Below, in pieces: positions 1,201-49,028 of a stretch of DNA of 64,000 bases (its first letter is position 1; each line of letters starts with the position of its first letter). The position numbers and the translations under genes were made by a program. Source of the DNA: Selaginella moellendorffii (Eukaryota; Plantae; Lycopodiophyta); assembly GCF_000143415.4 (NCBI RefSeq), contig NW_003314261.1:5988822-6052821 (forward strand). Direction: 5' to 3'. Below the pieces are notes generated by a model. The model ran no database searches. It saw only the letters and a list, made by a program, of their open reading frames with translations, and was not told the DNA's origin.

Positions 1201-1254
1201 ATTAATCCCAGTGTGTGGGATTATAAAGTGAGCATACCCAGATTGAGGAACCAT

Positions 1255-2299: not shown

Positions 2300-2300
2300 G

Positions 2301-3045: not shown

Positions 3046-3082
<37 letters not shown>

Positions 3083-4188
3083 GCCGAGGCCGAGACCGAG
3101 CCCGAGCCCGAGTCCGAGTCCGAATCCGAGTCTGAGTCCGAGTCCGAGTCCGAGTTCGAGTCCGAGTCCGAGTTCGAGTCCGGAGCCTGAGAGGGTGAAA
3201 GCCCAAAGCGTTCGTCTCCCAGACCCTGGGGGGTTTGGTGAGACCCAAAAGTATAGTAGGGGGGAGGACTGCAGTGGAGCCAGTTTGGCCAGGAAAGGCC
3301 AGTTTGGCCCAGGAAGGCCAGACCCAGTGTTGGGTGATGAACTGACCACTAGGAAGTCCAAGACTAGAGTGAATACGGACCGACAAGCGGGGTAGCTTGG
3401 TGAAGTGTTCAAGGGCCGGCTCTAGTTCCCCCGGGAGATCGACTGGCCGATGCTCCCAGTCCAAGTGTGGGTGGCACTACCTACTTGGATACCAGGCGTG
3501 GCTCAACGGAACCTCGCTCTAAGCCCATGGCTAGAGCACCTAAAGGCGAAAGGCGGGGAGAGTACCCAGGTGGCTCGCGTAAGGCCACGGTGTTCCGAAA
3601 TGTTGTCCCAAAGGCCCAGACTGTGGAAAGGAAGAGGAGCAGTCTTCTGGGGTAGTGACCAAGGACACAGTCGTGTGGTGAGGAAGTCCCAGAGGACCGT
3701 GGGACTTAGTGGTCAGGCCTGTGGGCCTGGATCAAGTGGCAGTGTTGGCAAACATAGCCATGGACAGAAAAGGGACTTGGTAGGAACTGACAAAGGGACT
3801 TTGGTGAAGGCTAATCCCCAGGTCTGTGGGCATCCTAAGGATGCTAAGGAGTGGATCTAGGATGACCACTCATGGACGGATGGCCCAGTCTTGGAGAGAC
3901 GGGATTGTGATGCAAGTGGTATTGGACCACTAGTGCGGCAAAGGTGAATGGGCATGGCCTTAGCGTAACGGGCCGATATGTCAGTGGTACCTTTGGGTGT
4001 CGGTCTTGGGACCGGACACGTGGAGCACTTGGACCAGGTGCAAGTGTTGAGTGGCATGGATGCCATTCTTGGGGCTAGCAAGTCCCAAGTCCTGAATTGG
4101 ACTTATGGAGGTTGTGAATGAGACTCCTCCAAGTGGTCGGAGGTGTGGTTAAGTGACTAAAGTAGAATGGAAAAATTAGTCGCTTACA
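2301..4188 (+). mobile_element. Complete 5' LTR of family A retrotransposon (TG...CA, ~1.9 kb)
   Basis: Starts TGTGAGAC, ends CGCTTACA, and is followed after 3 nt by a tRNA-iMet PBS. Confidence 0.8.
2530..3181 (+). repeat. Degenerate 6/12-mer tandem repeat (GAGATGGAGTCC / GAGACC / GAGTCC) inside the LTR
   Basis: Directly visible. It generates the spurious ESE/SPRW/RTR ORFs in all frames. Confidence 0.95.
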
Positions 4189-4191
4189 ATT

Positions 4192-4203
4192 TGGTATCGG
4201 AGC
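4192..4203 (+). other. Primer binding site (tRNA-iMet), TGGTATCGGAGC
   Basis: One mismatch to canonical TGGTATCAGAGC, directly downstream of the LTR end. Confidence 0.85.
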
Positions 4204-5080
4204 TGTTCCTTAGTCCGACTTTTATTGGTGCTCAAGTATATCACCACTGGTGTTGGCAACAGAAGGTCCAAGAAGTGGGCCTATCCTTGAGGAGTAGCAG
4301 GTCGGGAAGACATGGCTCTCCATTACAGTTCATGTGTGAACTTGTAGACAAGGTGGTGGATAGAAAAGGGGCCAATAATGGAACGACTTTGGGATCTTGG
4401 GAACAGTGCAAGGTTTTCCTCATTGAGTTGAGGAGGTGATCCAGATGAGCGTTTGACCCAGCAAACGGGCTAATGTAGTTGGGGTAAACAACTATAGTTG
4501 GGATCACGGGGAAGATAGAGACTCTAAAAACAATAAAGGAGTCACGAGTTTATCCTCACATGGTTGAGGCTGGTGCTCATAAAGGTGAGACCGGAATGGA
4601 TGACCGTGAGAGGTCAAGTATGGATGAGGACACGAGTCAAGCTCTATTTTGTTAAAGTGGGAATTGTCATTATCCCACTTGTAAAATAAGGTTTCCAAAC
4701 CTTTATATAGTATATAAATATAACAAAATTCAACTGCATTGAGGCACATGCCATTTTATTTTAAACAAGGAAATTTCTACTCAATCACTTCTCCTCCCCC
4801 TGCCACTGCTTCACCTCTCTCTTCTCCTTGTCATCGTCGTCCAATTTCTTTCCATCCTTTTAATATTGGCTCAGTTGCTCCAAGTCTAGGTGGAGCCCAA
4901 GTCCCCATTCAATCTTTACTTTCCCATTATTAATAAAACAACTTCGTAGACTTCCAATAACATGCTGTAACACTTCTAGTATAATGCAAATCCTCTCAAA
5001 GAATTGTCTTTTAATATTAATACAATTGCATGGAACACCATGCCATAATAAGTTACATTTTTAAATAAATACATGCCATC

Positions 5081-8000
5081 TCAGACTGTTATTTTTTGCC
5101 TCCAACGCCTATACAATAATCTTGGAATTTCATCACTCTCCACACTATCAGGATTTAAACCCAATAGTAATGCCATCTCTTCTCTAATACGTCCACGCTC
5201 ATGTTCAGTGGTTGAAGAACCCATCCGGTTGAGTAGATTATGGAGATGCGGATAGTGCTTGGCTAGACAATATACATGCCATAAATGATGACTGGTGTCT
5301 GTCCGATCAAATGGCTTCTGATATACCGTTCCATCTGCCATTTGGTTGATTTCTGCAGCCACCTCCTGGACTGGCCGGTTCTCTATCACCATCGCTCCAA
5401 GCCGTTTTGCAAGGTCCCCCAGAACATACGGTTTCTTCTCCCTAGTTTCCATACTGCAAGAGATGGGGTGCACTGCATATGTGTGCGTGTTCGCTGCAGT
5501 TTTAATCGGCGAGTCATCGATGATGAGGATTTCACTTGAGCTAGCAGTCCGGTTCATCACTACAGCCTCTGGCTTGACGAAGATGGGCTTGCTACCCCTC
5601 ACATGGACCATAGTCAAGCAATCCTCCTGCGTTAGGAGAAAGTCAAATGGTAATATTACTCGCGTCTGATCGTGCATCATCTGTAGCAACGTTAATGCAT
5701 TGTGGCGCATCATGGATGTCCAAACTCCCAATTGCAAATTGAACCCGGCCCTCTGTTTTAAGTGTCGCATGGTCATTATTAGATCCCGCAGTTTCTCCCG
5801 TGTGATTAATGTGAATCTGTCTCTTTTGACCAACTTGCGACCGCAGGCTTTGGAGGGTGCAATGACATTCGAGGACGAGCCACGCTCATGGGAGAAAAGG
5901 ACACCGTTCAGATCAAAAACGATACAGTACCTTCGCCGTGACTCTGAAATGAAATGCGTCAGCATAAAAAATGGTACAAGTCAATTTTACCATCTACAAT
6001 ATTAGCGAATGTTGCTCCCGATGGTCGTTGAGAGGGTTTTGGTCGAGGAAACGTGAAGGGCGGAAATACTCTCCTCTGCAATGTGGGGTCAATTGCATCC
6101 GATGGCGTGTGGGCACATGCCATTTCAGCTGTAGACTCTGGTACAACTGGCTCAACAGTGGCATGGGGTGGTTCCGATGGCGTGTGATCACACGCCATTT
6201 CAGCTGGTGCCTCCGTTGGCAAAGTGGACATGACCGAACAAGCAGCAGGGGCGGTGTAGGGAGGTTCCAACGGCGCGTAGTCAGACGATTGGGCACACGT
6301 TGAGTCCGTTGGAAATGAGGATACGACCGGCTCGGCGGCTGGGGCGGCCTCATGTGGGTCCAATGGCGCCTGGTCACCGTCAGTTGGATACGTGGACAAG
6401 ATTGACTTAGTGGTATGGGCAGCATCAAGTGGAGCGTGGTCAGCTTGCTTGGCGTTGATATGTATAGTAGCCTCCACCAGCTCTGATGACTCTTGCAGCC
6501 AAGTAGAGTCCACTGGCGGATCCATATGCATGTCCAAATATCTCCCTTCGATTGAGATGGTATCCTCCCGTGCTACTAAAAACAAACTCATTAGCACATT
6601 GAATCGACTATACTGTATTTACCATCAACTGCTATTGAGGAACTAGGACCGATATCACTTGGGCGCACTGCTGATTCTGAAGGATTAGACATATGTTTCG
6701 ACCCTTGCTTGGCACTATCCTTCCTCGACACTAAAGGCTAGAGTTTGTAAATTCAACTGAATAATCTCTACTTACCATTTGCTCTGCGACCTACATGGAC
6801 AATGTTAGAAATGGTAAAAGGTTAGGAATGGATGTATTATTATTTACCTGATGGTTTGTCTTGTATGACCTTCCTCCGCCGCTCTTTGGCCACCTCAGGC
6901 TGGCCATCGTCGTCATCATCGTCGTCGTCGTTATTGTGATCGTCACCATTGTGAGGACCATCCAAGTCCTCTTCATCCTCCTCTTCTTCGTCCTCCTCTT
7001 CTTTGTCCTCCTCTTCGTCCTTCTGCTCTTCTTGCTCATTATCTTTCTCTGGCTCCTCATCCCCCTCCTGCATTTCTTCCATAGGCTGCTCAGGCTGGAT
7101 GGCTTGTTCTTCCAGGACCATCTTGGGAAAATCATCTGGCCGAGTCTCCATCTCAAAATACAAGACATCCATAGCCTGTTTTAGTGCGTGACCTAGGACC
7201 GTATCCTCACCCGACTGTCTTAACATGGTTTCTGCACGTTCTTGCACCCTTCGAAGACGACGAGATGAGAAAAACGTGGCCCTGCCTTGAAAAGCTTCCC
7301 TCATCCATTGTACCTCTCCATTGAGATTGGGGAAGGGGAGTCCGCCATAGGAATCTGAGTCATGAGGTGGTGACTGCCTGCTTTCACTCAGCCCTTGATC
7401 TGCAATGAATGGCATGAGCACACACGCCATAACCGCGAGGCATTACCTATCATCTTTTCGTTGCCCTTCTTCCTTTTCGAATCAAACGCCTCTGATCTCG
7501 ACGACTGTCCAACGTGCTTTCGCTTTTTATGACCACTGTCAGTTTGAGCTTGGCTGGTGCTTGCCTGTTTTGCCTTTGAAGAAGTTTCTCCTGCAAGGAA
7601 TGGCATGAGACCACACGCCATTGCAAATATAATTTGTACCTCCTTTTTTCCTATTGCTTTTCTGTTTGTCCTTCTTCGATGCGCCACCAGTGCGCTTTTC
7701 AGTCCTCGTGTCTAAATATTCACAACGATCTATAATCAAAATGGCGTGAGGCCTCACGTGACCTTACCTTGTGCAGGTTGTGAGCTCGGCCCAACATGGG
7801 TATCTTCAATAGTAGCTGTTAACGCCGTTTCAGCATCTGGGGGTGGCCACGCTCCTGCATACAGAGCTTGTGAGATAACATTTAAACTTAAAGTGTGTAC
7901 TCACCAGGTTCACAGAGAAGATACTGTTTTTCTTTGGCAACTGTAATTATATGCTCCATTGAAGTCATCTCTTCAATGGAGTTTGTCACCGCAACACAAG

Positions 8001-10703
8001 GGACACCCTTGAGTAGTGCGGCTCGAAAGAATAGTCCGCCGCAGTTGTACTCGACAACACATTTGCCCTTGGAGTCAGAAGCAGATGACCCACCCGCTAT
8101 TGCGTTGAAGACCCAGCTGAGCATTTCCCATGCTGCACCTGGAGCTTTCTTTGGATTCGAAAGCTCCATAGCCGTCTTCAGTTCCTCAGGCACGGGTAAA
8201 TTGACCTCCCTCAGATCAATTCGATTGGCCTTGTCGAACGAAGCTGGGAAGTCACTCCAGTCCCACTCTGCTGCAGGACCAATAACAAGGGCGAGTGTGA
8301 AGATGCGGACATTCGTCGGTATCTTCTTCTTAGCCATTATCCCATGGATCTCCCGCATCTCCTTGCCTTTCAACCGAGCCTTCACCTCGTTCAAGGCCTT
8401 CCAGAACTTGTGATAGGATTCGGAGTCGTAGATCATATAGTGGACTGAAGATTCCACCTCCGCAAGTCCCACCATTAAGTCAATGATGGAGCTGACTTTG
8501 TCTGCATGAGTGATCTCCTCGTTTGTGAAGTCCATCACACAAAAGATGTTCTTGACCTGCTCATCTCCGCGGGAAACGATGCTCCTCCACCTTTGATCCT
8601 CATCCGAATTCAAGTATACCCGGTAAGGTTCTCGATAGGCCTCTGCTGTGGGGTCGAGTTGTTTCTGAAGCCGGCGGTCGACATCAATCTTAATGAAATT
8701 TGGATACTGATCCAACTTCTCAGCTTTACTTTTCGTGGCATCCCGCAGCAGATCGATGAACTTGGGGGCCCCCTTCACGTACTCGTCGATGTCTTCATTT
8801 GACAACTCCAGCGCTTCCATCATCTCTTGCGTGGTGTCGATGCTCACCCTCTCCATGGCCACTTGCTCGAAGATCCAATCCTTCAATAGCGCACGAGCTC
8901 TCAGAGTCGTGCACAAGTCCTCGTATGTCACAATATGGCCGGGAGTCATTTTGGTCTTGTTGAAGACTACCTCACCACGTAGAAGAGCATTAGCCACTGT
9001 CAGAAGGTCGTCGTCGTCTAGAGACCGCGAGAAACGCAAGGCGTTGAGCTTCAAATCATTGGGCTTCCGACCGTCCTCCACACCCATTGAGTTTGGCAAC
9101 TCCCCGTCATGGTACCTCCTCAACACATCTACCCATTTGTCAAAAACAACTTTTGTCGCGAGTAGAATGTTATGGATGCTGAGTGTGTCATTGACCCCCA
9201 GTGTTTTCGAGAGAAGACTCGAGAATTCCTGCAATGGAAATGGCGTGAGGCCACATGCTATGCCACATGCAACGAGGCTTACCTGCCAGGCGCTAGTTGC
9301 TAGTGCACGTCCTTGTCCTGGTTTTTGTGGCTTCTTCAGTTGAACCCAGAGCTTCCGTGTTCGTGCCAATGTCTCGTGCAGACCCGATTTGTAGCACGTT
9401 TCTTGCTTGACATTCTGCGCGTGGGAGATGTATATGATAGATCGGAGGGGCGAGTTGCCTTTTATCAGGCGGACAACTCTTGTCTTGAAGACTTTCTTCA
9501 CCTCCTCGCCCACCATAATATCCACAACTATCTCTTGCATCGCCAAGCTAGAATGCTGCCCGGAGACGGCATAGAACCGGATGTTCTGATCGTCCAACAC
9601 CTTCCTATTGATCAAGTCTGGAAACCTCGTCTCGCCCTTCATTGTTCGGTAGTAGGGGATCACGTCTGCGATGTCGGGTGTTACTGGACTTGCCAGCATC
9701 TTCTGCTTCAGTTTCTCCACCCACTCATCAGATACTAGCCTGTGGTTGTATTTGCTTTGGATGTCGATACGGCTCACGTCGATTGTATATACATTGTTGG
9801 AATAGTAACAAGTACTATTATCTGCGACGATTTTTGCTGCCTCTTCTTGCTCTTTCTGCTCTTTGCGGCTCTTCTTTTTGGTGGGTGTAGTGTTCGAACC
9901 CGAGGCAATGGCATCACTGAGTAGCTTCTTTTTTGGAGCAGGAGAGTCAGACGTCGGCTTGAGCTTGACCACCCTTTTCTGCTTCGAGGTAGTTTCTAGA
10001 TCGACCCCCTTCCCCTTTGCTTCGCGAACTGGAGTCACTCTCAACGGCTCAATGTTGGAATATAGTTTTTGAACATCGCCGTAGGTGAGGTCCGTGGATT
10101 CCATGTGATCTTCATAGACCCGCAGCGTCTTTGAAATTGTGGGCCTCCTGGACAACCTCTCCCTAGCTCCCTCTAGGAATTCCTCATAGCCGCTGCCCCC
10201 CTCCGGGAAGCCGCTAGGATGTGCAAGGTGGATCTTGAAGGCAGACGCTGTCTCTACCACAAGTGCCAGTCCATATTCTTGCATGGAACTGCATGGAGTG
10301 TCTGTCACTTGGATGAGGATCCCCATGCATTCTTTTCTCCTACCATCTGTGTTGTACAGCCTCAGATCCTCGCCTTCCATCCCGAAAGTCCAACTGGTGA
10401 GCTCCTCCCCCTTCTCTGCATCCACATTGACAGTGGCTGGAAGAAGAACGCAATTCCTCGCCTGTTCAGAAATGCACAACAATTAGAGCTGACAGATGAA
10501 AAGCTAGTAGCTGGAAATAACGTGAGGCCACACGCCATTCACCACTGCATCAGCTGTCTTGAGGCTGCATCCTAAGATGGCGTGAGGCTACACGCCATCT
10601 GTAACCGGACTGCACTCGAGAGCCCAATCGGTGCATGCCAATGTTGCTACTGAATGGCATGTGGCCTCATGCCATTTTCTACTTGGCCTAAAAGACTTAC
10701 CAT
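5081..10703 (-). CDS. Predicted 11-exon cargo gene, ~1,643 aa: ParB/DGQHR-like + degenerate N4/N6 DNA-MTase fold + acidic linker + FCP1/NIF-like HAD phosphatase domain
   Basis: Exons (minus): 10703-10701, 10461-9283, 9228-7905, 7854-7768, 7711-7640, 7590-7447, 7399-6848, 6790-6776, 6730-6623, 6575-5991, 5943-5081. All introns are GT-AG (45-57 bp, first 239 bp) and the joined frame is open. Motifs: NHRLVSDEWVEKL...FYAVSGQHS; NPKKAP...CVVEYNCGG...AALLKGVPCVAV; IVFDLNGVL...VWTS...IIDDSP. Confidence 0.75.
10517..10675. promoter_or_regulatory. Cluster of three ATGGCRTG-N6-CAYGCCAT palindromes in intron 1 of the cargo gene
   Basis: Sites at 10517-10538, 10577-10598 and 10654-10675. Regulatory role is inferred. 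Confidence 0.6.
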
Positions 10704-11477
10704 TTGAAGCCGAATGGAGGCGTGACAACCGGACTCGCTGGCGAATGTGCACTGTGTGTGCAGCGGATTGTAGCAGCAAGGCTACTCTGCCACTTACAGT
10801 TGGAGAGTGGCGCTGAAATCTCCCGGGACGCCAAGTGGGCTGCGTGTGGGTGGCGGAGTGGGCGGCGGAGTTGGCGGCGAAGTTACAAACTGGGTGTGTC
10901 TTGAAGTGGACGCCGATGCACACGAGCGCGATGCGAGCGCGAGTGTGATGCAAGCGCGAGTGGACGCCGATGCACACGAGAAACCTGTAGAGAAGTGGGA
11001 GCGCGAGTGGGAGCGCGATGCGAGCGCGAGTGTGCGAGCGCGAGTACGAAGCAAAATGCAAAACCTAACCTCACACGCGCGAAATGTCACGACGGTTGGT
11101 AATCCCGCCACGTCATCATTTCTCGGACTTGGGCGCCACCATTAATTTCTGGATCGGCGCGCGCATGCGTGAAATCCAAAAGAAATCCGCAACGTCATCA
11201 TTCCTCGGACTGCATGCACACGAAATCCAAAAGAAAGATCATGATTGGGATATCATTTAATACCCTCGCTATATTTATACCATGCATGATTGGATATTCC
11301 AAAGCATCTTGTATTTCCAAAAATGCCAGATGTTCAGCTAAATAAATTGTCAGAGGATTTGATGTGACGTTCAAGCATGTGGGCTCATGCAATTTTGATC
11401 CCAAAAAATGCACCAAAAAATGCTCGGCGTCATCTGGCGTTATCTCTTGAATGGCGTGGGGCCGCATGCCATTTTCA

Positions 11478-13328
11478 GGAGCACATAGGAGTATATTCCT
11501 AGAATATTCTGACACGCGCGAGATTGTTTTGAGTTTCCTGGAGATCCAACCGTTAGATCGCAACTAGATTTTACAGAATGGTATACAATGTCCTTCTTGA
11601 TGACCCTGCAAAGAAGCATCTTGATCGGACACCACATGAGACCACACGAGCATTACAATGTTTCAGGGGCATTTGCCATAGATCCGACCGTTATTTTGCT
11701 CCAAGATTCTACAGTTTGGTGTGCATTGACCTTTCCATCGACACTGCAAAGGGACATCACAATCAGATGCGGGATCACAAGAAACCAACTTCACTAACTC
11801 TGGTTTCACCAAGATCTACGTAAGGAGTTATGAAATGAAAGGACCCTCTTTATTGAAATGTGTTTATGGTCCTAGGGGCATTGTGACATATCCAAGGATT
11901 TTGCATCAAGTTCTGTATTTGCATGTTTATCAAGCTACTGAATTGCTAAACCCTAAACCCTAAACCCTAAACATGTGGCAAATGTTGCGTGAAGAAAGAT
12001 GCCCTTTCTGGGCAAATGCTGTAAGAGGCAGATGCCGAGCAGATGTATCTCAGGCTAGTGAAGGGGACAAACGAAAGCTAGCAACCAAAGGAATGTAAGC
12101 AACCAAAGGAATGTAAGTAGAGCATGTGTTTGTAAGTTTAAAAATGCCTCAACCACTTAAATTCCCAAGTAAATAAAGCTATTTCTATTTTTGGTACAGG
12201 TAAACTTTATTGCGTGTGGGCTCATGCAATTTTGAACCCAAAAATGCACCAAAAAATGCTCGACTAGCATTATTCTTTGAATGGCGTGTGGCCTTATATT
12301 GCCATAAATGACACAGCATAATTATTCCTTTACACGGCGAATAATCTTGGAGCACATAGGAGTATATTCCTAGAATATTCTGATACGCGCGAGATTGTTT
12401 TGAGTTTCCTGGAGATCCAACCGTTAGATCGCAACTAGATTTTTCAGAATGGTATACAATGTCCTTCTTGATGACCCTGCAAAGAAGCATCTCGATCGGA
12501 CACCACATGAGACCACACGAGCCTTACAATGTTTCAGGGGCATTTGCCATAGATCCGACCGTTATTTTGCTCCAAGATTCTACAGTTTGGTGTGCATTGA
12601 CCTTTCCATCGACACTGCAAAGGGACATCACAATCAGATGCGGGATCACAAGAAACCAACTTCACTAACTCTGGTTTCACCAAGATCTACGTAAGGAGTT
12701 ATGAAATGAAAGGACCCTCTTTATTGAAATGTGTTTATGGTCCTAGGGGCATTGTGACATATCCAAGGATTTTGCATCAAGTTCTGTATTTGCATGTTTA
12801 TCAAGCTACTGAATTGCTAAACCCTAAACCCTAACCCTAAACATGTGGCAAATGCTGCGTGAAGAAAGATGCCCTTTCTGGGCAAATGCTGTAAGAGGCA
12901 GATGCCGAGAAGATGTATCTCAGGCTAGCGAAGGGGACAAACGAAAGCTAGCTATAAACATGACGGGATGCAAATAGATTACTAGGCTGGTCCTGCGAAA
13001 ATCAAAAACCATAATTGAAAACATTGAAAATGCAAAAAGAAAGGTTTATAATATTTTTGAATTTTAAGCAACCAAAGGAATGTAAGTAGGGCATGTGTTT
13101 GTAAGTTTAAAAATGCCTCAACCACTTAAATTCCCAAGTAAATAAAGCTGTTTCTATTTTTGGTACAGGTAAACTTTATAGCGTGTGGGCTCATGCAATT
13201 TTGAACCCAAAAATGCACCAAAAGATGCTCGACTAGCATTATTCTTTGAATGGCATGTGGCATTATATTGCCATAAATGGACGTACACACACAGCATAAT
13301 TATTCCTTTACACGGCGAATAATCTTGG
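11478..13328. repeat. ~0.9 kb tandem duplication in the intergenic spacer of the transposon
   Basis: 11478-12348 is repeated at 12349-13328 (offset 871 at the start). Copy 2 has an analogous duplication with offset 852 (46309/47161). Confidence 0.9.
11946..11972. repeat. Plant telomere-type (AAACCCT)n / telobox tract
   Basis: CTAAACCCTAAACCCTAAACCCTAAAC. Also at 12817-12842, 46666-46685 and 47518-47537. Confidence 0.85.
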
Positions 13329-13864
13329 CGCGGATCGCTGACATGGCATGGCAAAGTTCGAATCACTGACATGGCACAGCTGGATCGAGGCAAGGACATG
13401 ATGTGACAAAGTTCAACCTCCGACAGCAAAGTCTAGAAGCTACTCAGTTTGAAATTTGTCAGAGGAATCATAAGATCTGGTTTGTCAGAGGATTTGATGT
13501 GACGTTCAAGCGTGTGTTATTTTTGAATTCTCGAACTCATTCCTAGGTCTATCATTTTTGTGCGCCGTGTTCTTGGTTCCGCTGAGCGCAGTGAGCGCTG
13601 CTTGTGTAAGCGGCGTTGTGAGCTGTGGTTTATGCGTCTACAAGCGGTTGCGGCATTGCGAGCGCCATTGCGAGCGGCAGTTTATGCGAGTGGCAGTTTG
13701 TGCAAGCGGCGCTACGAGCAGTTGCGGTGTTGCGAGCGGCGCTACGAGTAGTTGCGGTGTTGCGAGCGGCACTGTCTTTGGTGTGGCTACCGCTTCCTCT
13801 TGATATTCGGCACTTGTGCTTCCTGGTATGTTCACCATGGAATGGTTTAGGACCACATTTAGAA

Positions 13865-14054
13865 ATGGCATGAGGCCACATGCCATCTTGGGCCCTTGCA
13901 ATTTCATGGCTAGCGTATTGTCATGTATGTTTTTACTTGCCTGCAGCTGTGTGTATATCAAGATGGCATGAGGCCTCATGCCAATTTTGTGAATGCGAAA
14001 TTTCATGTGGGTGTCAATAGCATGTTTGAATAATGGCATGTGGCCTCATGCTAT
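13865..14054. promoter_or_regulatory. Cluster of three palindromes in a probable 5'UTR intron of the transposase
   Basis: Sites at 13865-13886, 13963-13984 and 14033-14054. Candidate intron runs from GT 13826 to AG 14135, just before ATG 14137. Confidence 0.6.
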
Positions 14055-14136
14055 TGAGGTTGTTTGGTATGTTATGATTTAGGCCATTCTCCAATCATTT
14101 TTTGTATGGTTTTAACTTCTTTTCTGCACTTTCAGA

Positions 14137-17100
14137 ATGGCCTTCAGGGTTGGGGAAAAGGTTTACATTTTGAATGGTGGGAAGAGAGTTGCAAAAGGGA
14201 CCCTTGTGTCTATGGATCGGAACTTTGTTATACACTGTCAAAGGCTTGGGGAAGGCAATGCTGCTGTATCAGTAGAGACTGTCTTCGATGGGAATGTGGT
14301 CGCTATTGAACGAGGAGAGATGGTCGTCGGGGTAAATGTTGTTGTTGCCTTGAAAAATCTTCAGAAGAAAGCAGATGTTGGGGACAGCGCAAGTGCGACG
14401 CATGTTCCCTCCGTGGATCTTAAGAACCGTGCTAGATGGATTCAGGCAAAGGTGTTTCTAAACAACCCCGAGGGGGAGGTGGTAGTTGAGGGCTTAGCCA
14501 CAGTTGTCGATCCAAGAGATGCGGTTGCTAATCAAGAATTGGGCTGGGATGATATTGGAGTTGCAATTTTAGAGGTTGTTGACACAGAAGAAAACAGTCT
14601 GACTATTGGAAGCATTGTGCGGTGGAAATTGAGGCATTTAGTGTTTGAGAATGTGAAGGATTCACAATCAAACACCACTACAACTGATGACAGAACATCT
14701 CTTCATGGGAAAAGAAAGTACACCTTCCTACAGCGCAGCCAAAGGGATCTGAGCAACGAACCGAAAAGGCAGAAAATGGCGATGGAGGTTCGAATGGTCT
14801 CGACAGTTGCTTGTTGCAAGAGGAGGTGCTGTCAACATGCTGATTGGGATGCTATTGAAGAGGAGAGAGCAAGATACAAGACATTGTCCTGGAAGGCAGC
14901 TCGCAATTTTGTGTATGAGGCATTACGGTCATCTGTTGATGCTTCAGAACATCAGGTGGGGGGCATGGTCTTCCAGAGGGGTTTGGTCTGCATGAAGGCA
15001 TGGAGAATCATTTATGGAGTCCCTCGAACCACATTCTACAGAATCAAAACTGAGTTCGAGGAACAAAGGGTTCAACAGGCAGTCCATGGGAACGACGGTA
15101 CGCACAAAACCAGGGGTCATGTTGTATATGGAGAGGCAATCTTCAAGAGGTTTGTCAAGACATGTAGCGAGCAGCAACCACATAAAACCCGCCTCTTGGA
15201 AGATGGAACACGAGACACCCAACGAGTTCTTCCTTCCATGTATACCAAGGGGGCCATATTGGAAGATGTGAATCGGGAACTCCAGAGTAATGGCTACAGG
15301 AAGCTGAGCCAATCTAGATTTAGTAGATTGTAGAGCAACAGGTTCAGGGATGTGAGTATAGGAAAGTACTCCAGCTTTTCAAAGTGTGACGAGTGCACTG
15401 CTATCAAAATGGCTTTGTCGAAGAATTCTTGCAGCGCTCAAGAGCGAGAGACGTTGGTTAGAAGGTGGCTCGACCACAACATCGAGCAGAGAAGCTGCAG
15501 GACTGCATATTATCATAACAGGATTCTCTCCATGGAGAGACCTGACTCTTACCTCTGCATCATCCACGACAAAATGGATCAGAAAAAGACGTGCTTACCT
15601 CGACTCAATCCTGCCCCCAAGGCAATCTCTTCATCCATGCAGCTGCTTGTGTCTCTGTTTGGCATAATCGCTCATGGGCATGGTGCCCAGAACTATGGGA
15701 ACTTCTTTGTACCTCTATGGGGTGGCGGGGGTGCAAACATGATGATTGCGTCCCTAGCAAAACACTTAAGGTCTCTGCAAAGTGCGCAGACTGAGCTGAA
15801 CGGCCAACCCTTGCATAAGGCCCTTGTCGATCGAACCCCATACAGGGTTCAGCTGGAGGAGGAGCAAAGGCTTGCAGTATCGCGTGGGGCCCCATGCCAT
15901 CTCAGTGAATATGTTGGCCGTCAGATTGTAGGGTTATCACGTGAGGCCTCTTGCCATTCCGACGAGGCTAGTCGCCCGGTGAATGCACAGCCTCATCCAA
16001 ATGAAGCAGAATCTCAAGGAAGTTCTTGCGGCCGATGTGGCCTTCCACCCCATCTTCTGCTCCAAACAGACAATGCTGGCAGTGAGAACAAAAACATGTA
16101 CGTCTTCGCGTACTTGGCGATGCTTGTTGCCAAAGGCATATTTGAAACGGTTACACTTGGCTTTCTCATGGTTGGGCACACTCATGAAGACGTCGATGCC
16201 ATGTTCAGTCACTTGGCAGAGTCCCTCCGGCGATCCAATGTCCTCACCCTCCCACAACTCTACGATGAATTCCAAAATTGCATCAAAGGCACTGTTGAAG
16301 CTGCACTTGTGACAGAGGTTCCAGACTTTAAGGGGTTTGTAAGAGGCTACATCAGGGACGGATCCGAAACGCTGATTGGCCACTCCAAGCCTCTTTAGTT
16401 TCATTTCAGCATGCGTGACGGTGCTCCAGTGATGAGGTACAAGATGAGAGAATGGGACACAGTGTGGCTGCCAGTGGATGGCATTGAACTCTTCAAGAGA
16501 GATCCCATAATTGGGGAACCTATGATTCCTCAGGGTTCCCCACGGCCGATGCACCCGGATGGACTCAAAGACCAGGAAAGTATAGTGGCCGGGATTAGAC
16601 AGCATATTGCCTTCTGGAAGAGGGGGTTGGTGTTTGGTGGAGAATCCTATTTTAAGAGGTGCAAGCCTTTGCTCGAATACTGGGAGAAGATTATATNNNN
16701 NNNNNNNNNNNNNNNNNNNNNNNNNNNNNNNNNNNNNNNNNNNNNNNNNNNNNNNNNNNNNNNNNNNNNNNNNNNNNNNNNNNNNNNNNNNNNNNNTTTT
16801 GGCCAGAACCCAGAGCACCAGATAGTAGCGGAACAATGTCCTCTGGAAATGCAGTGACAGATAACGATGTTGAGGATCATTATTGTGGGCCGAGGAACAA
16901 GAAGCCGGATTCAGCATTCAATCCAATACAGGTCTGCAAAGGAATGGTCGTGCTTGTCAGACCCAGTAATAAAAAACAAATGATATGGGTGGGGCGCTGC
17001 ATCACTGATGCAGAGGAGGACGCGGAAACTAACTCCTTCAATGTAACTGTGGAGTGGTTCAAGCCAAGTTCCGGATATACGAAGGATTGCCTAGAAAAGA

Positions 17101-17258
17101 GATGGGTGCTGAATCCAAGGGATCCCAGCATGAGCATATCAGTGGATAATGTTGTGCATGGTTGGATGCGGAAGCAGAGTGCCACCATCACCTTGCTAGA
17201 CCATGCAAGAGATGCAGCAAGAGCATTCATAACCCAGGTTCAAGGTGAGATTCATTAA
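14137..17258 (+). pseudogene. Sola1-like DDD/E transposase (~1,020 aa consensus), with two premature stops
   Basis: Motifs FSKCDEC, CIIHDKMDQ, LLLQTDNAGSENKN, FLMVGHTHEDVDAMFS. TAG at 15331 and 16396 correspond to TGG and CAG in copy 2. Spans the N gap. A short last exon (17297-17331) is possible. Confidence 0.85.
16697..16796. other. Assembly gap (100 N)
   Basis: N run. The equivalent segment in copy 2 is 47 bp (51345-51391). Confidence 0.99.
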
Positions 17259-17945
17259 TATTCCTTTACTAAGTTTCTAATGTATTTTATTTCAAGGTGA
17301 ACAATCCGAATCTGAATCAGAGGAGGCGTGATGGCATGTGGCCCTTTGCACTAGTATATCTTAATACCGGTCTGAGAAATAGAATGGCATGTGCCCTCAG
17401 GCCTTTTACTAAATCACCTTTGAAAGAAATGCAAGCCTCTATGTCGTAAAAAAAAGGTACTAGAGAAATTCCTTAATAATATGAATGTTATTTAGTTTCA
17501 TGAAAATACACTAAGGGTCAAATGAGTTAAATGACTTCTCCAGACTAGCAATGCCTCTTGCTACACCTTCACAATTAGATTCGTTAGAAAAAGATAACAT
17601 TGAATAATATCTAAATGTTCTCACCATTAAGTTATATGTCTGGCTAATAGGAATGACGTTCATCTTGGAAAGCTCACCACACGCTCAATGAACAAACAAA
17701 TAGTGTGTGCGCGCATGCCATCGCTCTTCTTTAGCTTCAGATTCGGCTTGTTCACCTTGACAATGAGATTTATTATACAACCAGATGGACTCAGTTTGGA
17801 CACAAAGTCACCGCGCTAGTCACCATGCCCCAGATATGTCTAGCCCCTGGACAAAAAACATATAATTTCACGTCATTTTCAAATACTTGAAAATTTGTAC
17901 CTAGTCCCATTTTACTGAATAAATCCCACTTTAACGAAATAGAGC

Positions 17946-20040
17946 TTGATGGTAGATTCTTTTTTTGACGATGATTATGCATCTCTCTTTTGTTGGGATG
18001 AGTAATGATATTTCATGATGGTTAATTGTTCTCTTTGATAGCTTATGGTTTTTCACAGTACCACATGTTTTTTGTGATTTGCTCTGGATTGGTCTTTTAG
18101 ATTTGAGATATTGGTAAGATGTTGCTGACACTTGCTTGAACAACTTTGATTCCATGGAATGCGGGTTAGCCTTCAGAATTATGCCTAGGATCCTTTTGAG
18201 TTCTATCTCGTTCAATATAGACCTGTCATCGCTCTCGTGTTCTTCCTCTTTCCTGGGATCTATTCAAATTGGCTTACTGTAATGATTCGCATGAACAAGT
18301 ATTTGTTTTCTTTGCAAAATTTATTTTGTTCTGTTGATTGTTGCTTGAGTTAGTTCTAATAGATTTGGATGTTATTTTCTTTAACTGATACATTTACGAG
18401 CATTTTGCTTGCTAGTCAATGGTACTTTGTGTTCTTGTAGTTGTTTTTTATAAGTTGTTTGGCATGCTATCTATTATTTTTGGTAGTTAAGCTTATTATT
18501 GAGTTAACTTAATAATATACTTACTATTGAATTTTATTGGATGATTAATCGCATGACTTTAACCTTTAATGATCTTGGTGGTTTTTGTATTCTATAATTC
18601 TTGTTTATCAAATGATAACTTACTTGGAATACTTTTGTGTTTTAATTTAAGATTTATTCATTGATAATTAAGTCTTTAAGCTATCATAGTTTATGACTTT
18701 GATATTATCCATCTTTTGATCTTTGAGTTTGGGTCAGTATACACAAATTGGCTTCAACAATTTGTGTGTATGGTGAAATATCTAGTTATGGGGTAACTAC
18801 TGTAAACTAGTCACATCACCCGCTTCTCTCTTGATGTTCCTTATTTCGTTAAAAGGGTGTAACCATGTAAACAACTTTAACTGCCTATTTACAGTAGTCT
18901 ATCTAAACCTTACCGATAGATTTGGTTTCTTTGCTCAAGAGGTTTAGGGCCTCTAGCTTCTCTCTCTATGCCATTTATGGGTTGGGGATACTTTTATAAG
19001 TTGGGTGACACCCAGAGCAATAAGGGTGGCTAACTCCGTTGGTCATTTCCTTATCAACGATGGCCAAAAGGTGTTTGAGTTGGTAGTGCATCTGCATTAG
19101 ATAAAGAGGTTACCCTAACTCATTTAAGTTGGTGCATTTCTTACATAATGTGATCATCGTGAACTTTTTTTAGAGTTGTTTTCTTGTTGGTGGTCTAAAC
19201 TAGGGTATGTATTGACAAGGACATCAATCTTCCCTAAGGGGGAGAGAGTGTCATGAATGTGACTATAAGTATCAAAAAATATCTATCGGCTAGTCTTTTT
19301 GAATATTTTTTCCTTACTACCATGATGGTAGAAAATTGATATTGTTGGACCCTTTATTAGTCTCTGCCTAAGCTAGTTGAGAAATTGATCCTCGTATGTG
19401 CATTTGACCAGATGAGCATAATGACGGAATTTTCAAGTGTTATTAGTCAAATATACTTGACTTGGTTAGAGAAACTCATTCGTTAACTTGCACTTGCTAG
19501 TGTTAGGAACCCCCACGATATTGAGATTGATCCCTTAATACTCGTTATATGATAACTTATTGTGTCTACTAAACACCCTTACTATTATGCCCCATATGTT
19601 AGTTCCATTCAATCCCAATTGCTATTTATAAGGGGTTCCAAATATATAATAGGGGTAGTGGGTATAGCCAACCAACCTAAGGCATAATTTAGCTCTTGCT
19701 TGCATACTTGTTTTTGCTTTGCATCTGGCTTGGGTCTAAGCCTAAGTTTCACACCATGTTAGCTAGTGGAGTACCTATATCCTCGCATTAAGCCACTAGT
19801 ATGTTGAAATAGTATCAAATTCTGTTTGGCTCTGTTTTGTATGCTAGTCCTGGCATTGAGATGCTAGATGCTCTAAGAATGTTCTAAATTGCTTCGTGCT
19901 CTTATCCTTTCACTCCTTGGGCTAAACGTTCAGAAGTCACTCTATGCTCTAGTTCCTTCACTCCTTGGTTGCAAGCTTTGGCTCCGTACCTTTATTCAGT
20001 TGTGCAAGGCCCTAAAACTTGAGTTCCCAATTCAAAAATT
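17946..20040 (+). mobile_element. 3' internal region, PPT and degenerate 3' LTR of the LARD-like family (family B)
   Basis: 17946-19248 is colinear with ~38000-39212. PPT AAGGGGGAGAGAG is followed by TG at 19249. The LTR resembles 39213 onward and 33250 onward. Confidence 0.75.
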
Positions 20041-39400: not shown

Positions 39401-40048
39401 ATGTGTTTCTAGCTGAGCATACTCGGCCTGGCTCTTAGTTCTCTTTTGCTCTGTCTTGCACTGGCTTGACAAGAACCCTTGCGTATTGAGATTAGTCCCT
39501 CAATATCGCTGGATGATAGCTTACCGTGTCTGCCAAACACCCTCGCTATTATGCCCTTTGTGTTAGTCTCATCTCGGTCCCAAATGCTATTGCTCATTTG
39601 GCATATAAGCTCTATTTCGTTAAAGTGGGAATTGTCATTATCCCACTTGTAAAATAAGGTTTCCAAACCTTTATATAGTATATAAATATAACAAAATTCA
39701 ACTGCATTGAGGCACATGCCATTTTATTTTAAACAAGGAAATGTCTACTCAATCACTTCTCCTCCCCCTGCCACTGCTTCACCTCTCTCTTCTCCTTGTC
39801 ATCGTCGTCTAATTTCTTTCCATCCTTTTAATATTGGCTCAGTTGCTCCGATTCTAGGTGGAGCCCAAGTCCCCATTCAATCTTTACTTTCCCCTTATTA
39901 ATAAAACAACTTCGTAGACTTCCAATAACATGCTGTAACACTTCTAGTATAATGCAAATCCTTTTAAAAAATTGTCTTTTAATATTAATACAATGGCATG
40001 GAACCCCATGCCATAATAAGTTACATTTTTAAATAAATACATGCCATC

Positions 40049-43000
40049 TCAGACTGTTATTTTTTGCCTCCAACGCCTATACAATAATCTTGGAATTTCA
40101 TCACTCTCCACACTATCAGGATTTAAACCCAATAGTAATGCCATCTCTTCTCTAATACATCCACGCTCATGTTCAATGGTCGAAGAACCCATCCGGTTGA
40201 GTAGATTATGGAGATGCGGATAGTGCTTGGCTAGACAATATACATGTCATAAATGATGACTGGTGTCTATCTGATCAAATGGCTTCTAATATACCGTTCC
40301 ATCTGCCATTTGGTTGATTTCTGCAGCCACCTCCTAAACTGGCCGGTTCTCTATCACTATCGCTCCAAGCCGTTTTGCAAGGTCCCCCAGAACATACGGT
40401 TTCTTCTCCCTAGTTTCCATACTGCAAGAGATGGGGTGCACTGCATATGTGTGCGTGTTCGCTGCAGTTTTAATCGGCGAGTCATCGATGATGAAGATTT
40501 CACTTGACCTAGCAGTCCGGTTCATCACTACAGCCTCTGGCTTGACGAAGATGGGCTTGCTACCCCTCACATGGACCATAGTCAAGCAATCCTCCTGCGT
40601 TAGGAGAAAGTCAAATGGTAATATTACTCGCGTCTAATCGTGCATCATCTATAGCAACGTTAATGCATTGTGGCACATCATGGATGTCCAAACTCCTAAT
40701 TGCAAATTGAACCCGGCCCTCTGTTTTAAGTGTCGCATGGTCATTATTAGATCCCGCAGTTTCTCCCGTGTGATTAATGTGAATCTGTCTCTTTTGACCA
40801 ACTTGCGACCGCAGGCTTTGGAGGGTGCAATGACATTTAAGGACGAGCCACGCTTATGGGAGAAAAGGACACCGTTCAGATCAAAAACGATACAGTACCT
40901 TCGCCGTGACTCTAAAATGAAATGCGTCAGCATAAAAAATGGTACAAGTCAATTTTACCATCTACAATATTAGCGAATGGTGCACCCGATGGTCGTTGAG
41001 AGGGTTTTGGTCGAGGAAACGTGAAGGGCGGAAATACTCTCCTCTGCAATGTGGGGTCAATCGCATCCGATGGCGTGTGGGCACATGCCATTTCAGTTGT
41101 AGACTCTGGTACAACTGGCTCAACAGTGGCATGGGGTGGTTCCGATGGCGTGTGATCACACACCATTTCAGCTGGTGCCTCCGTTGGCAAAGTGGACATG
41201 ACTGAACAGGCAGCAGGGGCGGTGTAGGGAGGTTCCAACGGTGCGTAGTCAGACGATTGGGCACACATTGAGTCCGTTGGAAATGAGGATACGACTGGCT
41301 CGGCGGCTGGGGCGGCCTCATGCGGGTCCAATGGTGCCTGGTCACCGTTAGTTGGATATGTGGACAAGATTGACTCAGTGGTATGGGCAGCATCAAGTGG
41401 AGCGTGGTCAGCTTGCTTGGTGTTGATATGGATAGTAGCCTCCACCACCTCTGATGACTCTTGCAGGCAAGTAGAGTCCACTGGTGGATCCATATACATG
41501 TCCAAATATCTCCCTTCGATTGAGATGGTATCCTCCCTACTGGCTACTAAAAACAAACTCATTAGCACATTGAATCAACTATACTGTATTTACCATCAAC
41601 TGCTATTGAGGAACTAGGACCGATATCACTTGGGCACACTGCTGATTCTGAAGGATTGGACATACGTTTCAACCCTTGCTTGGCACTATCCTTCCTCGAC
41701 ACTAAAGGCTAGAGTTTGTATCTTAATTCAACTGAATAATCTCTACTTACCATTTGCTCTGCGACCTACATGGACAATGTTAGAAATGGTAAAAGGTTAG
41801 GAATGGATGTACTATTATTTACCTGATGGTTTGTCTTGTATGACCTTCCTACGCTGCTCTTTGGCCACCTCAGGCTGGCCATCGTCGTCATCATCGTCGT
41901 TGTCGTTATTGTGATCGTCACCATTGTGAGGACCATCCAAGTCCTCTTCGTCCTCCTCTTCTTCGTCCTTCTCTTCTTTGTCCTCCTCTTCGTCCTTCTG
42001 CTCTTCCTGCTCATTATCTTTCTCTGGCTCCTCATCCCCCTCCTGCATTTCTTCCATAGGCTGCTCAGGCTGGATGGCTTGTTCTTCCAGGACCATCTTG
42101 GGAAAATCATCTGGCCGAGTCTCCATCTCAAAATACAAGACATCCATAGCCTGTTTTAGTGCATGACCTAGGACCGTATCCTCACCCGACTGTCTTAACA
42201 TGGTTTCTGCACGTTCTTGCACCCTTCGAAGACGACGAGATGAGAAAAACGTGGCCCTGACTTGAAAAGCATCCCTCATCCATTGTACCTCTCCATTGAG
42301 ATTGGGGAAGGGGAGTCCGCCATAGGAATCTGAGTCAGGAGGTGGTGACTGGCTGCTTTCCCACACACACCATAACCACAAGGCATTATCTATCATCTTT
42401 TCGTTGCCCTTCTTCCTTTTCGAATCAAACGCCTCTGATCCCGACAACTGTCCAACGTGCTTTCGCTTTTTATGACCACTGTCAGTTTGAGCTTGGCTGG
42501 TGCTTGCCTGTTTTGCCTTTGAAGAAGTGTCTTCTACAAGGAATGGCATGAGACCACACGCCATTGCAAATATAATTTGTACCTCCTTTTTTCCTATTGC
42601 TTGTCTATTTGTCCTTCTTCGACGCACCACCAGTGCGCTTTTCAGTCCTCGTGTCTGAATATTCACAACGATCTATAATCAAAATGGCGTGAGGCCTCAC
42701 GTGACCTTACCTTGTGCAGGTTGTGAGCTCGGCCCAACATGGGTATCTTCAACAGTAGCTGTTAACGCCGTTTCAGCATCTGGGGGTGGCCACGCTCCTG
42801 CATACAGAGCTTGTGAGATAACATTTAAACTTAAAGTGCGTACTCACCAGGTTCGCAGAGAAGATACTGTTTTTCTTTGGCAACTGTAATTATATGCTCC
42901 ATTGAAGTCACCTCTTCAATGGAGTTTGTCACCGCAACACACAGGACACCCTTGGGTAGTGCGGCTCGAAAGAATTGTCCGCCGCAGTTGTACTCGACAA

Positions 43001-45648
43001 CGCATTTGCCCTTGGAGTCGGAAGTAGGTGACCCACCCGCTATTGCGTTGAAGACCCAGTTGAGCATTTCCCATGCTGCACCTGGAGCTTTCTCTGGATT
43101 CGAAAGCTCCATAGCCGTCTTCAGTTCCTCAGGCACGGGTAAATTGACCTCCCTCAGATCAATTCGATCGGTCTTGTCGAACGAAGCTAGGAAGTCACTC
43201 CAGTCCCACTCTGCTGCAGGACCAATAACAAGGGCGAGTGTGAAGATGCAGACATTCATCGGTATCTTCTTCTTAGCCATTATCCCATGGATCTCCTGCA
43301 TCTCCTTGCCTTTCAACCGAGCCTTCACCTCGTTCAAGGCCTTCCAGAACTTGTGATAGGATTCGGAGTCATAGATCATATAGTGGACTAAAGATTCCAC
43401 CTCCGCAAGTCCCACCATTAAGTCAATGATGGAGTTGACTTTGTCTGCATGAGTGATCTCCTCGTTTGTGAAGTCCATCACACAAAAGATGTTCTTGACC
43501 TGCTCATCTCCGCGGGAAACGATGCTCCTCCACCTTTGATCCTCATCCGAATTCAAGTATACCCGGTAAGGTTCTCGATAGGCCTCTGCTGCGGGGTCGA
43601 GCTGTTTCTGAAGCCGACGGTCGACATCAATCTTAATGAAATTTGGATACTGATCCAACTTCTCAGCTTTACTTTTCGTGGCATCCCGCAGCAGATCGAT
43701 GAACTTGGGGGCCCCCTTCATGTACTCGTCGATGTCTTCATTTGACAACTCCAGCTCTTCCATCATCTCTTGCGTGGTGTCGATGCTCACCCTCTCCACG
43801 GCCACTTGCTCGAAGATCCAATCCTTCAATAGCGCACGAGCTCTCAGAGTCGTGCACAAGTCTTCGTATGTCACAATATGGTCGGGAGTCATTTTGGTCT
43901 TGTTGAAGACTACCTCACCACGTAGAAGAGCATTAGCCACTGTCAGAAGGTCGTCATCGTCTAGAGACCGCGAGAAATGCAAGGCGTTGAGCTTCAAATC
44001 ATTGGGCTTCCGGCCGTCCTCCACACCCATTGAGTTTGGCAACTCCCCGTCATGGTACCTCCTCAGCACATCTACCCATTTGTCAAAAAAACCTTTTTTG
44101 TCGCGAGTAGAATGTTATGGATGCTGAGTGTGTCATTGACCCCCAGTGTTTTCGAGAGAAGACTCAAGAATTCCTGCAATGGAAATGGCGTGAGGCCACA
44201 TGCTATGCCACATGCAACGAGGCTTACCTGCCAGGCGCTAGTTGCTAGTGCACGTCCTTGTCCTGGTTTTTGTGGCTTCTTCAGTTGAACCCAGAGCTTC
44301 CGTGTTCGTGCCAATGTCTCGTGCAGACCCGATTTGTAGCACGTTTCTTGCTTGACATTCTGCGCATGGGAGATGGATATGATAGATCGGAGGGGCGAGT
44401 TGCCTTTTATTAGACGGACAACTCTTGTCTTGAAGACTTTCTTCACCTCCTCGCCCACCATAATATCCACAACTATTTCTTGCATCGCTAAGCTAGAATG
44501 CTGCCCGGAGACGGCATAGAACCGGATGTTCTGATCGTCCAACACCTTCCTATTGATCAAGTCTGGAAACCTCGTCTCGCCCTTCATTGTTCGGTAGTAG
44601 GGGATCACGTCTGTGATGTCGGGTGTTATTGGACTTGCCAGCATCTTCTGCTTCAGTTTCTCCACCCATTCATCAGATACTAGCCTGTGGTTGTATTTGC
44701 TTTGGATGTCGATACGGCTCACGTCGATTGTATATACTTTGTTGGAATAGTAACAAGTACTATTATCTGCGACGATTTTTGCTACCTTTTCTTGCTCTTT
44801 CTACTCTTTGCAGCTCTTCTTTTTGGTGGGTGTAGTGTACGAACCCGAGGCAATGGCATCACCGAGTAGCTTATTTTTTGGACCAGGAGAATCAGACGTC
44901 GGCTTGAGCTTGACCACCCTTTTCTGCTTCGGGGTAGTTTCCAGATCGACCCCCTTCCCCTTCGCTTCACAAACTGGAGGCACTCTCAACGGCTTAATGT
45001 TGGAATATAGTTTTTGAACATCGCCGTAGGTGAGGTCCGTGGATTCCATGTGATCTTCATAGACCCGCAGCGTCTTTGAAATTGTAGGCCTCCTGGACAA
45101 CCTCTCCCTAGCTCCCTCTAGGAATTCCTCATAGCTGCTGCCCCCCTCTGGGAAGCCACTAGGATGTGCAACGTGGATCTTGAAGGCGGACACTGTCTCT
45201 ACCACAAGTGCCAGTCCATATTCTTGCATGGAACTGCATGGAGTGTCTGTCACTTGGATGAGGATCCCCATGCATTCTTTTCTCCCACCATCTGTGTTGT
45301 ACAGCCTCAGATCCTCGCCTTCCATCCCGAAAGTCCAACTGGTGAGCTCCTCCCCCTTCTCTGCATCCACATTGACAGTGGCTGGAAGAAGAACGCAATT
45401 CCTCGCCTGTTCAGAAATGCACAACAATTAGAGCTGACAGATGAAAAGCTAGCAGCTGGAAATAATGTGAGGCCACACGCCATTCACCACTGCATTAGAT
45501 GTCTTGAGGCTGCATCCTAAGATGGCGTGAGGCTACACGCCATCTGTAACCGGACTGCACTCGAGAGCCCAATCGGTGCATGCCAATGTTGCTATTGAAT
45601 GGCATATGGCCTCATGCCATTTTCTACTTGGCCTAAAAGACTTACCAT
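40049..45648 (-). pseudogene. Disrupted copy of the ParB/MTase/FCP1 cargo gene
   Basis: Colinear with 5081-10703. Stops at 44801, 40649 and 40334, a frameshift near 44090, and a deletion near 42360 that removes a splice acceptor. Confidence 0.85.
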
Positions 45649-48600: not shown

Positions 48601-49028
48601 GGCGCTACGAGCAGTTGCGTTGTTGCGAGCGGCACTACGAGTAGTTGCGGTGTTGCGAGCGGCACTGTCTTTGGTGTGGCTACCGCTTCCTCTTGATATT
48701 CAGCACTTGTGCTTCCTGGTATATTCACCATGTAATGGCTGAGGACCACATTTAGAAATGGCATGAGGCCACATGCCATCTTGGGCCCTTACAATTTCAT
48801 GGCTAGCAGGGGCCAAAGATAGCGTGAGGCCTCATGCCATTAGTGGTACCACTAATGGCATGAGGCCTCATGCCAATTTTGTGAATGCGAAATTTCACGT
48901 GGGTGTCAATAGCATGTTTGAATAATGGCATGTGGCCTCATGCTATTGAGGTTTTTTCGTATGTTATGATTTAGGCCATTCTCCAATCATTTTTTGTATG
49001 GTCTTAACTTCTTTTTTGCACTTTCAGA

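Follow-up and report, generated by a model that had tools for sequence, protein, structure and literature searches.

Dispersed palindromes in a Sola-like transposon of Selaginella moellendorffii as candidate sites for its own ParB-like accessory protein

How might a DNA transposon recognise its own body? The closest described case is Sola1-1_Ec32 of Ectocarpus, a giant Sola element with an opposite-strand gene for a ParB and amino-methyltransferase protein that is proposed to bind its own element; similar proteins are cited for green and red algae (PMC12477816). We examined 64,000 nucleotides of the lycophyte Selaginella moellendorffii (contig NW_003314261.1, positions 5,988,822 to 6,052,821; hereafter the window), which hold two copies of a Sola-like transposon strewn with a 22-bp palindrome. 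The Sola plus ParB–methyltransferase design is already published, in Sola1-1_Ec32. To this the present element adds a defined site that changes from family to family and is placed at branch points, and a degenerate methyltransferase with a NIF-like tail.

How does the present element compare? Like Sola1-1_Ec32 it makes a 4-bp target-site duplication and carries an opposite-strand gene with ParB-like and amino-methyltransferase domains, here predicted folds (Z 8–10). Sola1-1_Ec32 is described as 21.5 kb long, with 282-bp terminal inverted repeats (TIRs) and a 1104-aa (amino-acid) protein whose methyltransferase is predicted to be productive (PMC12477816), whereas the element here is 13.9 kb long and has short TIRs, a degenerate catalytic motif, an acidic tract with a NIF-like domain, and a candidate target site. 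In the accessible text of that paper the self-binding proposal names no target; the stem ‘palindrom’ is absent from its main text and occurs once in its supplements, for another element. The present element supplies a precise 22-bp candidate. An incomplete literature search, which also missed PMC12477816, found no paper on such palindromes.

Three further systems are instructive. The VANDAL elements of Arabidopsis, with their VANC proteins, likewise carry motifs particular to each family, placed in introns, between genes and in terminal non-coding DNA, and have a separate accessory gene (PMC5735166, PMC10398659). VANC motifs are, however, 8–9 nt long and non-palindromic, multiply as tandem repeats and belong to the Mutator superfamily, as those reports present them; no tandem array in the window contains a site. 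Bacterial ParB, Noc and KorB, with their parS, NBS and OB sites, share with our element a fold (here predicted) and palindromes scattered along mobile DNA; from OB sites far away, KorB regulates genes. They differ in that their sites are 13–16 bp long, against 22 bp; here, moreover, the arginine patch is altered, there is no ParA partner, extra domains are fused, and the host is eukaryotic (comparison with the account in PMC11790492). Finally, Spm TnpA and the AtMu1 transposase are element-encoded, sequence-specific activators with family-specific motifs, but these proteins bind termini, whereas the dyads here are body-wide (bioRxiv 10.64898/2026.08.24.746577, as far as its text is available).

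A 22-bp dyad confined to the element

An earlier note on the window had reported about 20 copies per element of the palindrome ATGGCRTG-N6-CAYGCCAT. We find 15 exact matches in the window (shuffle mean 0.00) and 46 with no more than three mismatches to this 8-6-8 pattern (shuffle mean 0.68, maximum 3). With a weight matrix derived from copy 1 we count 23 sites in that copy (4639–17947), 26 in copy 2 (39607–53484) and 0 in the other ~37 kb, which confirms the observation. All 18 full or near-full sites that had been listed for copy 1 fit the pattern, eight exactly, five with one mismatch, three with two and two with three; the list lacked the sites at 11372, 12209 and 13178. Its half or degenerate sites can be specified further: the one given as 4745 begins at 4733 and is degenerate, 4745 marking its right arm; at 5072 there is a half-site on its own; and 12281 is a left half plus spacer. 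Nor are all the ‘extra’ sites of copy 2 extra in the same sense. The one at 51926 is the orthologue of copy-1 site 17331; those at 52072, 52232 and 52832, together with 52312, lie inside a 942-bp segment missing from copy 1; and 48819 is a local inverted duplicate of site 48758 with its flank. The copy-1 sites 7409 and 12209 are absent from copy 2. The exact site was looked for in metagenome contigs and not found there.

Is the spacer free to vary? The note had it fixed in length and variable in sequence, of which only the first half survives. In a non-circular test on 35 exact half-sites of copy 2, the far arm (at least 6/8) stands at spacer 6 in 26 of them and at spacers 4, 5, 7 or 8 in 0/35. 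The composition is conserved as WGGCCW, with G10 in 29/35, G11 in 24/35, C12 in 26/35 and C13 in 27/35. Because these positions are constrained, the site is a contiguous 11+11 dyad, ATGGCRTGWGG-CCWCAYGCCAT. Its strict spacing, the lack of sites in tandem arrays and the mostly unrelated flanks (5/351 pairs match at 12/20 or better) point to a dimeric protein-binding site and not a tandem repeat, as the note had proposed; consistent with this are the lack of strand bias for G-U pairs and the predicted ParB/Noc/KorB-type fold that the element encodes.

Where do the sites lie? Introns, 8% of the length of copy 1, hold 10 of its 23 sites (binomial p 4e-6), and coding DNA, 60% of the length, holds four (p 3e-5), both p values being overstated as the sites cluster. 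The other nine are in other non-coding DNA (table 1). Conserved coding DNA is avoided, most sites are kilobases away from the element ends, and the ends carry a TCCCAYT motif that differs from the dispersed dyad.

In three introns of 47–54 nt the CTCAY of the site stands 15–17 nt from the acceptor, in the slot of a branch point; the same slot holds CTRAY or CTCAC in five of six short introns without a site (CTRAY at 14–16 nt). Could the dyads then act in the RNA, as hairpins that mask the branch point and so control splicing? Two of the three introns do fold with z −1.7 and −2.5, but of six segments tested, four show no more folding than their shuffled versions. On the transcribed strand, moreover, there are almost as many A-C mismatches (7) as G-U pairs (12), the conserved G10/C13 would leave a 2-nt loop, nine of the 23 sites are in neither introns nor exons, and there is no Rfam match. 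We regard a hairpin role as very improbable.

Different words in related elements

Do related elements carry the same word? Among eight loci (L001–L008) retrieved by transposase similarity, five have dyads of their own, belonging to three other dyad families and standing in the same positions beside the transposase gene but not within its coding region. L004 has 19 matches of the 21-bp word TTCAGCTCGASTCGAGCTGAA (shuffles 0–1), of which 11 are in the modelled pre-transposase intron, seven downstream, one upstream and none in the transposase coding region; L005 has eight matches of a near-identical variant, none of them coding. In L001 the word CCTATGRC-N6-GYCATAGG precedes the first exon and recurs after the stop codon, and L003 carries it once with two mismatches. 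A third word occurs twice in L002, which alone is not above chance (767/2000 shuffles). The corresponding figures are 13/2000 for L001 and 0/2000 for a different, longer dyad at position 114 of L003, these three tests having been chosen after the data were seen. L006 and L008 (1.3–1.5 kb) have no repeated dyad, and together with L007 make three of eight loci that give no support. In a quick tree the words track the transposase clades.

L004, L005 and L007 are filed in bacterial genome bins, and from their introns and plant telomere-type repeats they look eukaryotic. The contig of L007, filed as Nitrospirales and treated apart, holds at 3435–13420 an intron-rich, animal-like DUF7869-type element with 30 copies of the palindrome core TTGAAATTTCAA arranged in arrays that flank the transposase left and right. 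At 111–137 of L005 the arms TTTAGC...GCTAAA equal the KorB operator arms printed in PMC11790492, with a longer centre, probably by chance. L004 ends in a convergent frame resembling a methyltransferase C-terminus (Atlas 0.84, a lead only).

The relatives bear on two other explanations. One is that the sites recruit a host transcription factor: they cluster on the promoter side and in first introns, as host cis-elements typically do. That 22-bp sites should have 0 occurrences outside the element, and that every family of relatives should use another word, makes this highly improbable. The other, to which we give equally little credence, is that local duplication and template switching produced the sites as a neutral side effect. 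One site was indeed born by inverted duplication, a few pairs share flanks, and selection between the two copies is not measurable; yet most flanks are unrelated, the sites keep a strict spacing and stay out of coding DNA, and other families show the same pattern with words that are unrelated.

A candidate reader

Since the word does not occur outside the element and gives way to another in other families, an element-encoded reader is implied. Which protein might it be? In copy 1, removal of the modelled introns from the minus strand leaves one stop-free 1643-aa frame of an accessory gene; the copy-2 gene has seven stops. (In run X20, guessed to be RNA and possibly DNA, intron 1 is unspliced.) The order of the domains is ParB-like, helical, methyltransferase-like, then an acidic tract and a NIF-like domain. 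A profile-free protein scan gave 16 matches, of which 14 are credible; proteins of Selaginella, Calypogeia and Riccia are among these and suggest that the host is a seed-free land plant. P0087 and P0090, two of the 16, are repeats and were excluded from alignment A2. Word-indexed protein searches yielded no accessory homologue, and viral contigs no match to the accessory protein or the transposase.

Modelled with homologues, the core reached a mean predicted local distance difference test (pLDDT) score of 62.9, against 33 for a single-sequence model. In the predicted structure residues 16–155 adopt the N-terminal ParB fold: they match Caulobacter crescentus ParB (Z 10.4, root-mean-square deviation (rmsd) 2.3, 98 aligned), PadC (Z 9.6, rmsd 3.0, 99 aligned) and KorB (Z 8.9). 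The top Foldseek rows for the core are Noc and KorB (E ~2e-3), along with phage ParB proteins. Residues 403–647 match M1.HpyAVI (Z 8.4, rmsd 4.3, 168 aligned) and CcrM (Z 8.1), and beta-class amino-methyltransferases overall at Z ~8 and rmsd 4–5. The first domain of the homologue P0091 is grouped by the Atlas with DUF3723 and ParB_N. The Atlas clusters nearest to its residues 120–330 that bear a name are fungal DUF3723 proteins, a group linked to Starship elements.

The ParB-like protein is a better candidate than the transposase, because proteins of its fold family bind palindromes as dimers, because KorB acts on genes from distant sites (PMC11790492), and because the ends carry another motif. 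We think it probable, though well short of assured, that the dyads are parS-like self-recognition sites for the element's own accessory protein, VANC-like in placement. We infer that this protein reads them as a dimer: its predicted ParB-like and helical domains would grip the dyads, the bound protein would coat the element, and the coat would keep the two divergent genes active against host silencing. Such an outcome, anti-silencing or activation, is one we put forward tentatively; it is favoured because the placement matches that of VANC targets as reported in PMC5735166. Self-repression in the manner of KorB seems rather improbable, and help in bringing the ends together more so. Half-sites accept CG (17/54) or CA (32/54) at one same position and 5-methylcytosine mimics T, so that binding to the candidate site would likely tolerate CG methylation.

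Might the transposase itself bind the dyads, for end pairing or self-activation? The words follow transposase clades and flank the transposase gene in 5/5 relatives, with no accessory gene visible in four; in a sister element a site comes directly behind the shared 42-bp end; and transposases can be sequence-specific activators, according to the available text of bioRxiv 10.64898/2026.08.24.746577. In the same source, however, TnpA and the AtMu1 transposase bind termini, whereas here the ends carry a different motif and lie kilobases from most sites. The element also bears the cost of a 1643-aa gene with a palindrome-reading fold. On balance we hold the transposase to be an unlikely reader, though a serious rival.

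Several observations weigh against the accessory protein as reader of parS-like sites. Words that track transposase clades fit either protein. Between the two copies the arms do not evolve significantly more slowly than spacer or flanks, so that the reading of the earlier note does not pass the check it had set itself: 9/344 arm, 3/131 spacer and 55/1193 flank positions are changed (p 1.0, 0.12), in what is a weak test on two decaying copies that includes one half-deleted site. Both copies show methylation-type decay, with C>T at 5.9% of CG, 4.1% of CHG and 1.0% of CHH positions (H being A, C or T), at ratios resembling those of neighbouring repeats; one equally young repeat pair has 3–6x more CG change, a figure based on only three transversions. 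Demethylation has been demonstrated for VANC, as set out in PMC5735166 and PMC10398659, whereas here we have the sequence of two dead copies, a weak test, with no C>T dip near the sites. The helical part matches the ParB DNA-binding region loosely (145–160 residues, rmsd 11–12), and any helix-turn-helix in it is putative. Searches of Pfam, NCBIfam, PHROG and PDB sequences gave no name to the ParB or the methyltransferase part. In place of the ParB arginine patch (GxxR, for cytidine triphosphate), all aligned members have SGQHS, DGQHT or SGAHS. Where active beta-class N6A/N4C methyltransferases have the catalytic motif (D/N/S)PP(Y/F/W), such as DPPY, the sequence is DFTN here and DLRR, DSAN, DATT or DFAR in homologues. 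The accessory gene is not visible in L001–L003 or L005, on contigs of 2–4 kb, and the methyltransferase-like end of L004 has no significant match to the accessory protein of the window.

Judged by its sequence, the methyltransferase domain is likely inactive. As its motif is degenerate, the accessory protein is more likely a scaffold or base reader than a writer of N4-methylcytosine or N6-methyladenine, which suggests that binding, not methylation, is the function retained in this lineage. One could go further and suppose that seed-free plants harbour, in their Sola transposons, a eukaryotic version of parS/ParB, a second anti-silencing system invented independently of VANC. Each family would evolve its own 21–22-bp dyad, packed into minimal introns and doubling as a branch point; a methylation-tolerant ParB-like dimer would load and spread along the element; and a dead methyltransferase with a C-terminal-domain-phosphatase-like domain would keep it transcribed. 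This we consider doubtful. If self-recognition holds true, a bacterial or phage palindrome-reading module was recruited for it by a plant transposon, and orthogonal protein–site pairs are on offer; the non-cognate words of the relatives make specificity testable by swaps.

Element structure and surroundings

Copies 1 and 2 are one repeat (92–98% identity), a Sola-like cut-and-paste transposon of 13.3–13.9 kb with a DUF7869 transposase (profile E 1e-41), short TIRs and a 4-bp ATAT duplication. Sola elements are characterised by a 4-bp target duplication and TIRs of 11–1124 bp, and the short TIRs (~28 bp), the duplication and three aspartate motifs fit that description, as available in PMC10741241. 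The duplication is found at copy 2, where empty-site loose ends at 53485 (runs X3, X12, X16) fuse the left flank straight to the right flank; contigs of runs X3, X5 and X16 start at 39607 (AAGCTCT). Copy 1 has none and also contains an N gap, so that it may be a join of two insertions. The terminal motif is likely the site of the transposase.

Table 1. Features of the element and placement of the copy-1 sites (window coordinates).
Feature	Position	Strand	Remarks
Element copy 1	4639..17947		13.3 kb; N gap 16697-16796; without 942-bp segment; no target duplication
Left TIR and terminal motif	4639..4680	+	AAGTGGGA-N10-TCCCACTT; differs from dispersed dyad
Sites 4733 (degenerate), 5025	4733..5046		left non-coding region
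Accessory gene	5081..10703	-	11 exons; 10 introns, all GT-AG and nine of them 45-57 nt long; splicing modelled
NIF/FCP1-like HAD (haloacid dehalogenase) domain (PF03031)	5483..5929	-	E 4.4e-6; motif DLNGV
Coding sites 6102, 6177	6102..6198		proline-rich low-complexity part of accessory protein; flanks of the two sites related (13/20)
47-nt intron with site 7409	7400..7446	-	CTCAT 15 nt from acceptor
49-nt intron with site 7600	7591..7639	-	CTCAT 15 nt from acceptor
56-nt intron with site 7741	7712..7767	-	
Predicted beta-class N6A/N4C methyltransferase fold	7915..8649	-	DFTN where DPPY expected
Helical domain in position of ParB DNA-binding domain	8656..9303	-	candidate site reader
54-nt intron with site 9240	9229..9282	-	CTCAC 17 nt from acceptor
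Predicted ParB/Srx-like domain	9391..9810	-	SGQHS where ParB has arginine patch
Accessory-gene first intron	10462..10700	-	sites 10517, 10577, 10654
Inter-gene region (divergent genes), internally duplicated	10704..13825		sites 11372, 11451, 12209, 13178; half-site 12281; AAACCCT at 11949, 12820
Modelled intron ahead of transposase start	13826..14135	+	sites 13865, 13963, 14033
Sola-like transposase (DUF7869)	14137..17330	+	candidate DDD (three-aspartate) motifs at 15565, 16066, 16183
Coding sites 15879, 15936	15879..15957		least conserved transposase insert, 5% column identity
Sites 17331, 17384, 17700	17331..17721		17331 touches modelled stop codon
Right TIR	17900..17947	-	two TCCCAYT motifs
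Target duplication ATAT, copy 2, left	39603..39606	+	4 bp; right copy at 53485-53488
Element copy 2	39607..53484		13.9 kb; termini AAGCTCT...AGAGCAT; TIR ~28 bp
Site gained in copy 2 (48819)	48758..48876		by local inverted duplication
Copy-2 segment absent from copy 1	51926..52879		942 bp; sites 52072, 52232, 52312, 52832

The three aspartate motifs are presumably catalytic. The copy-1 transposase gene has stops at 15331 and 16396, that of copy 2 a 244-bp deletion and a stop near 51329; 79 matches to the protein include Ceratodon and Riccia. Upstream of the transposase gene are plant telomere-type AAACCCT tracts (11949–11972, 12820–12833, 46669, 47521; ~3580–3680 in L004), of the kind that serve as telo-boxes.

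The family is abundant in 20 public sequencing runs of one organism. Where the majority of reads in a run departs from the copies, the change is mostly A>G or T>C, and the copies have therefore decayed by C>T. The 942-bp deletion is a common form. At 51845–52880 the small terminal exons of the transposase gene are duplicated (51892, 52019), with a site after each; the segment is missing in ~40% of the depth of runs X3–X16. Loose ends in runs X3 and X16 (at 4680 and 39648) point to a sister or non-autonomous element that has the first 42 bp in common and continues at once with a dyad.

Elsewhere in the window, positions 1–4200 hold a GC-rich repeat whose copies are both direct and inverted, together with tandem arrays of GTCCGAGATGGA / GAGTCC, and similar arrays recur at 21166–21423 and 26800–26966. 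Fragments of a long terminal repeat (LTR) retrotransposon, with reverse transcriptase and integrase zinc-binding parts, occupy 22333–23835 on the minus strand. A 309-aa frame at 55045–55974, also on the minus strand, has a weak B-lectin match (E 0.0025, below cutoff). The sequences to the right of copy 1 (17948–19626) and on either side of copy 2 (37999–39591 and 53662–54072) belong to one host repeat family (~75% identity).

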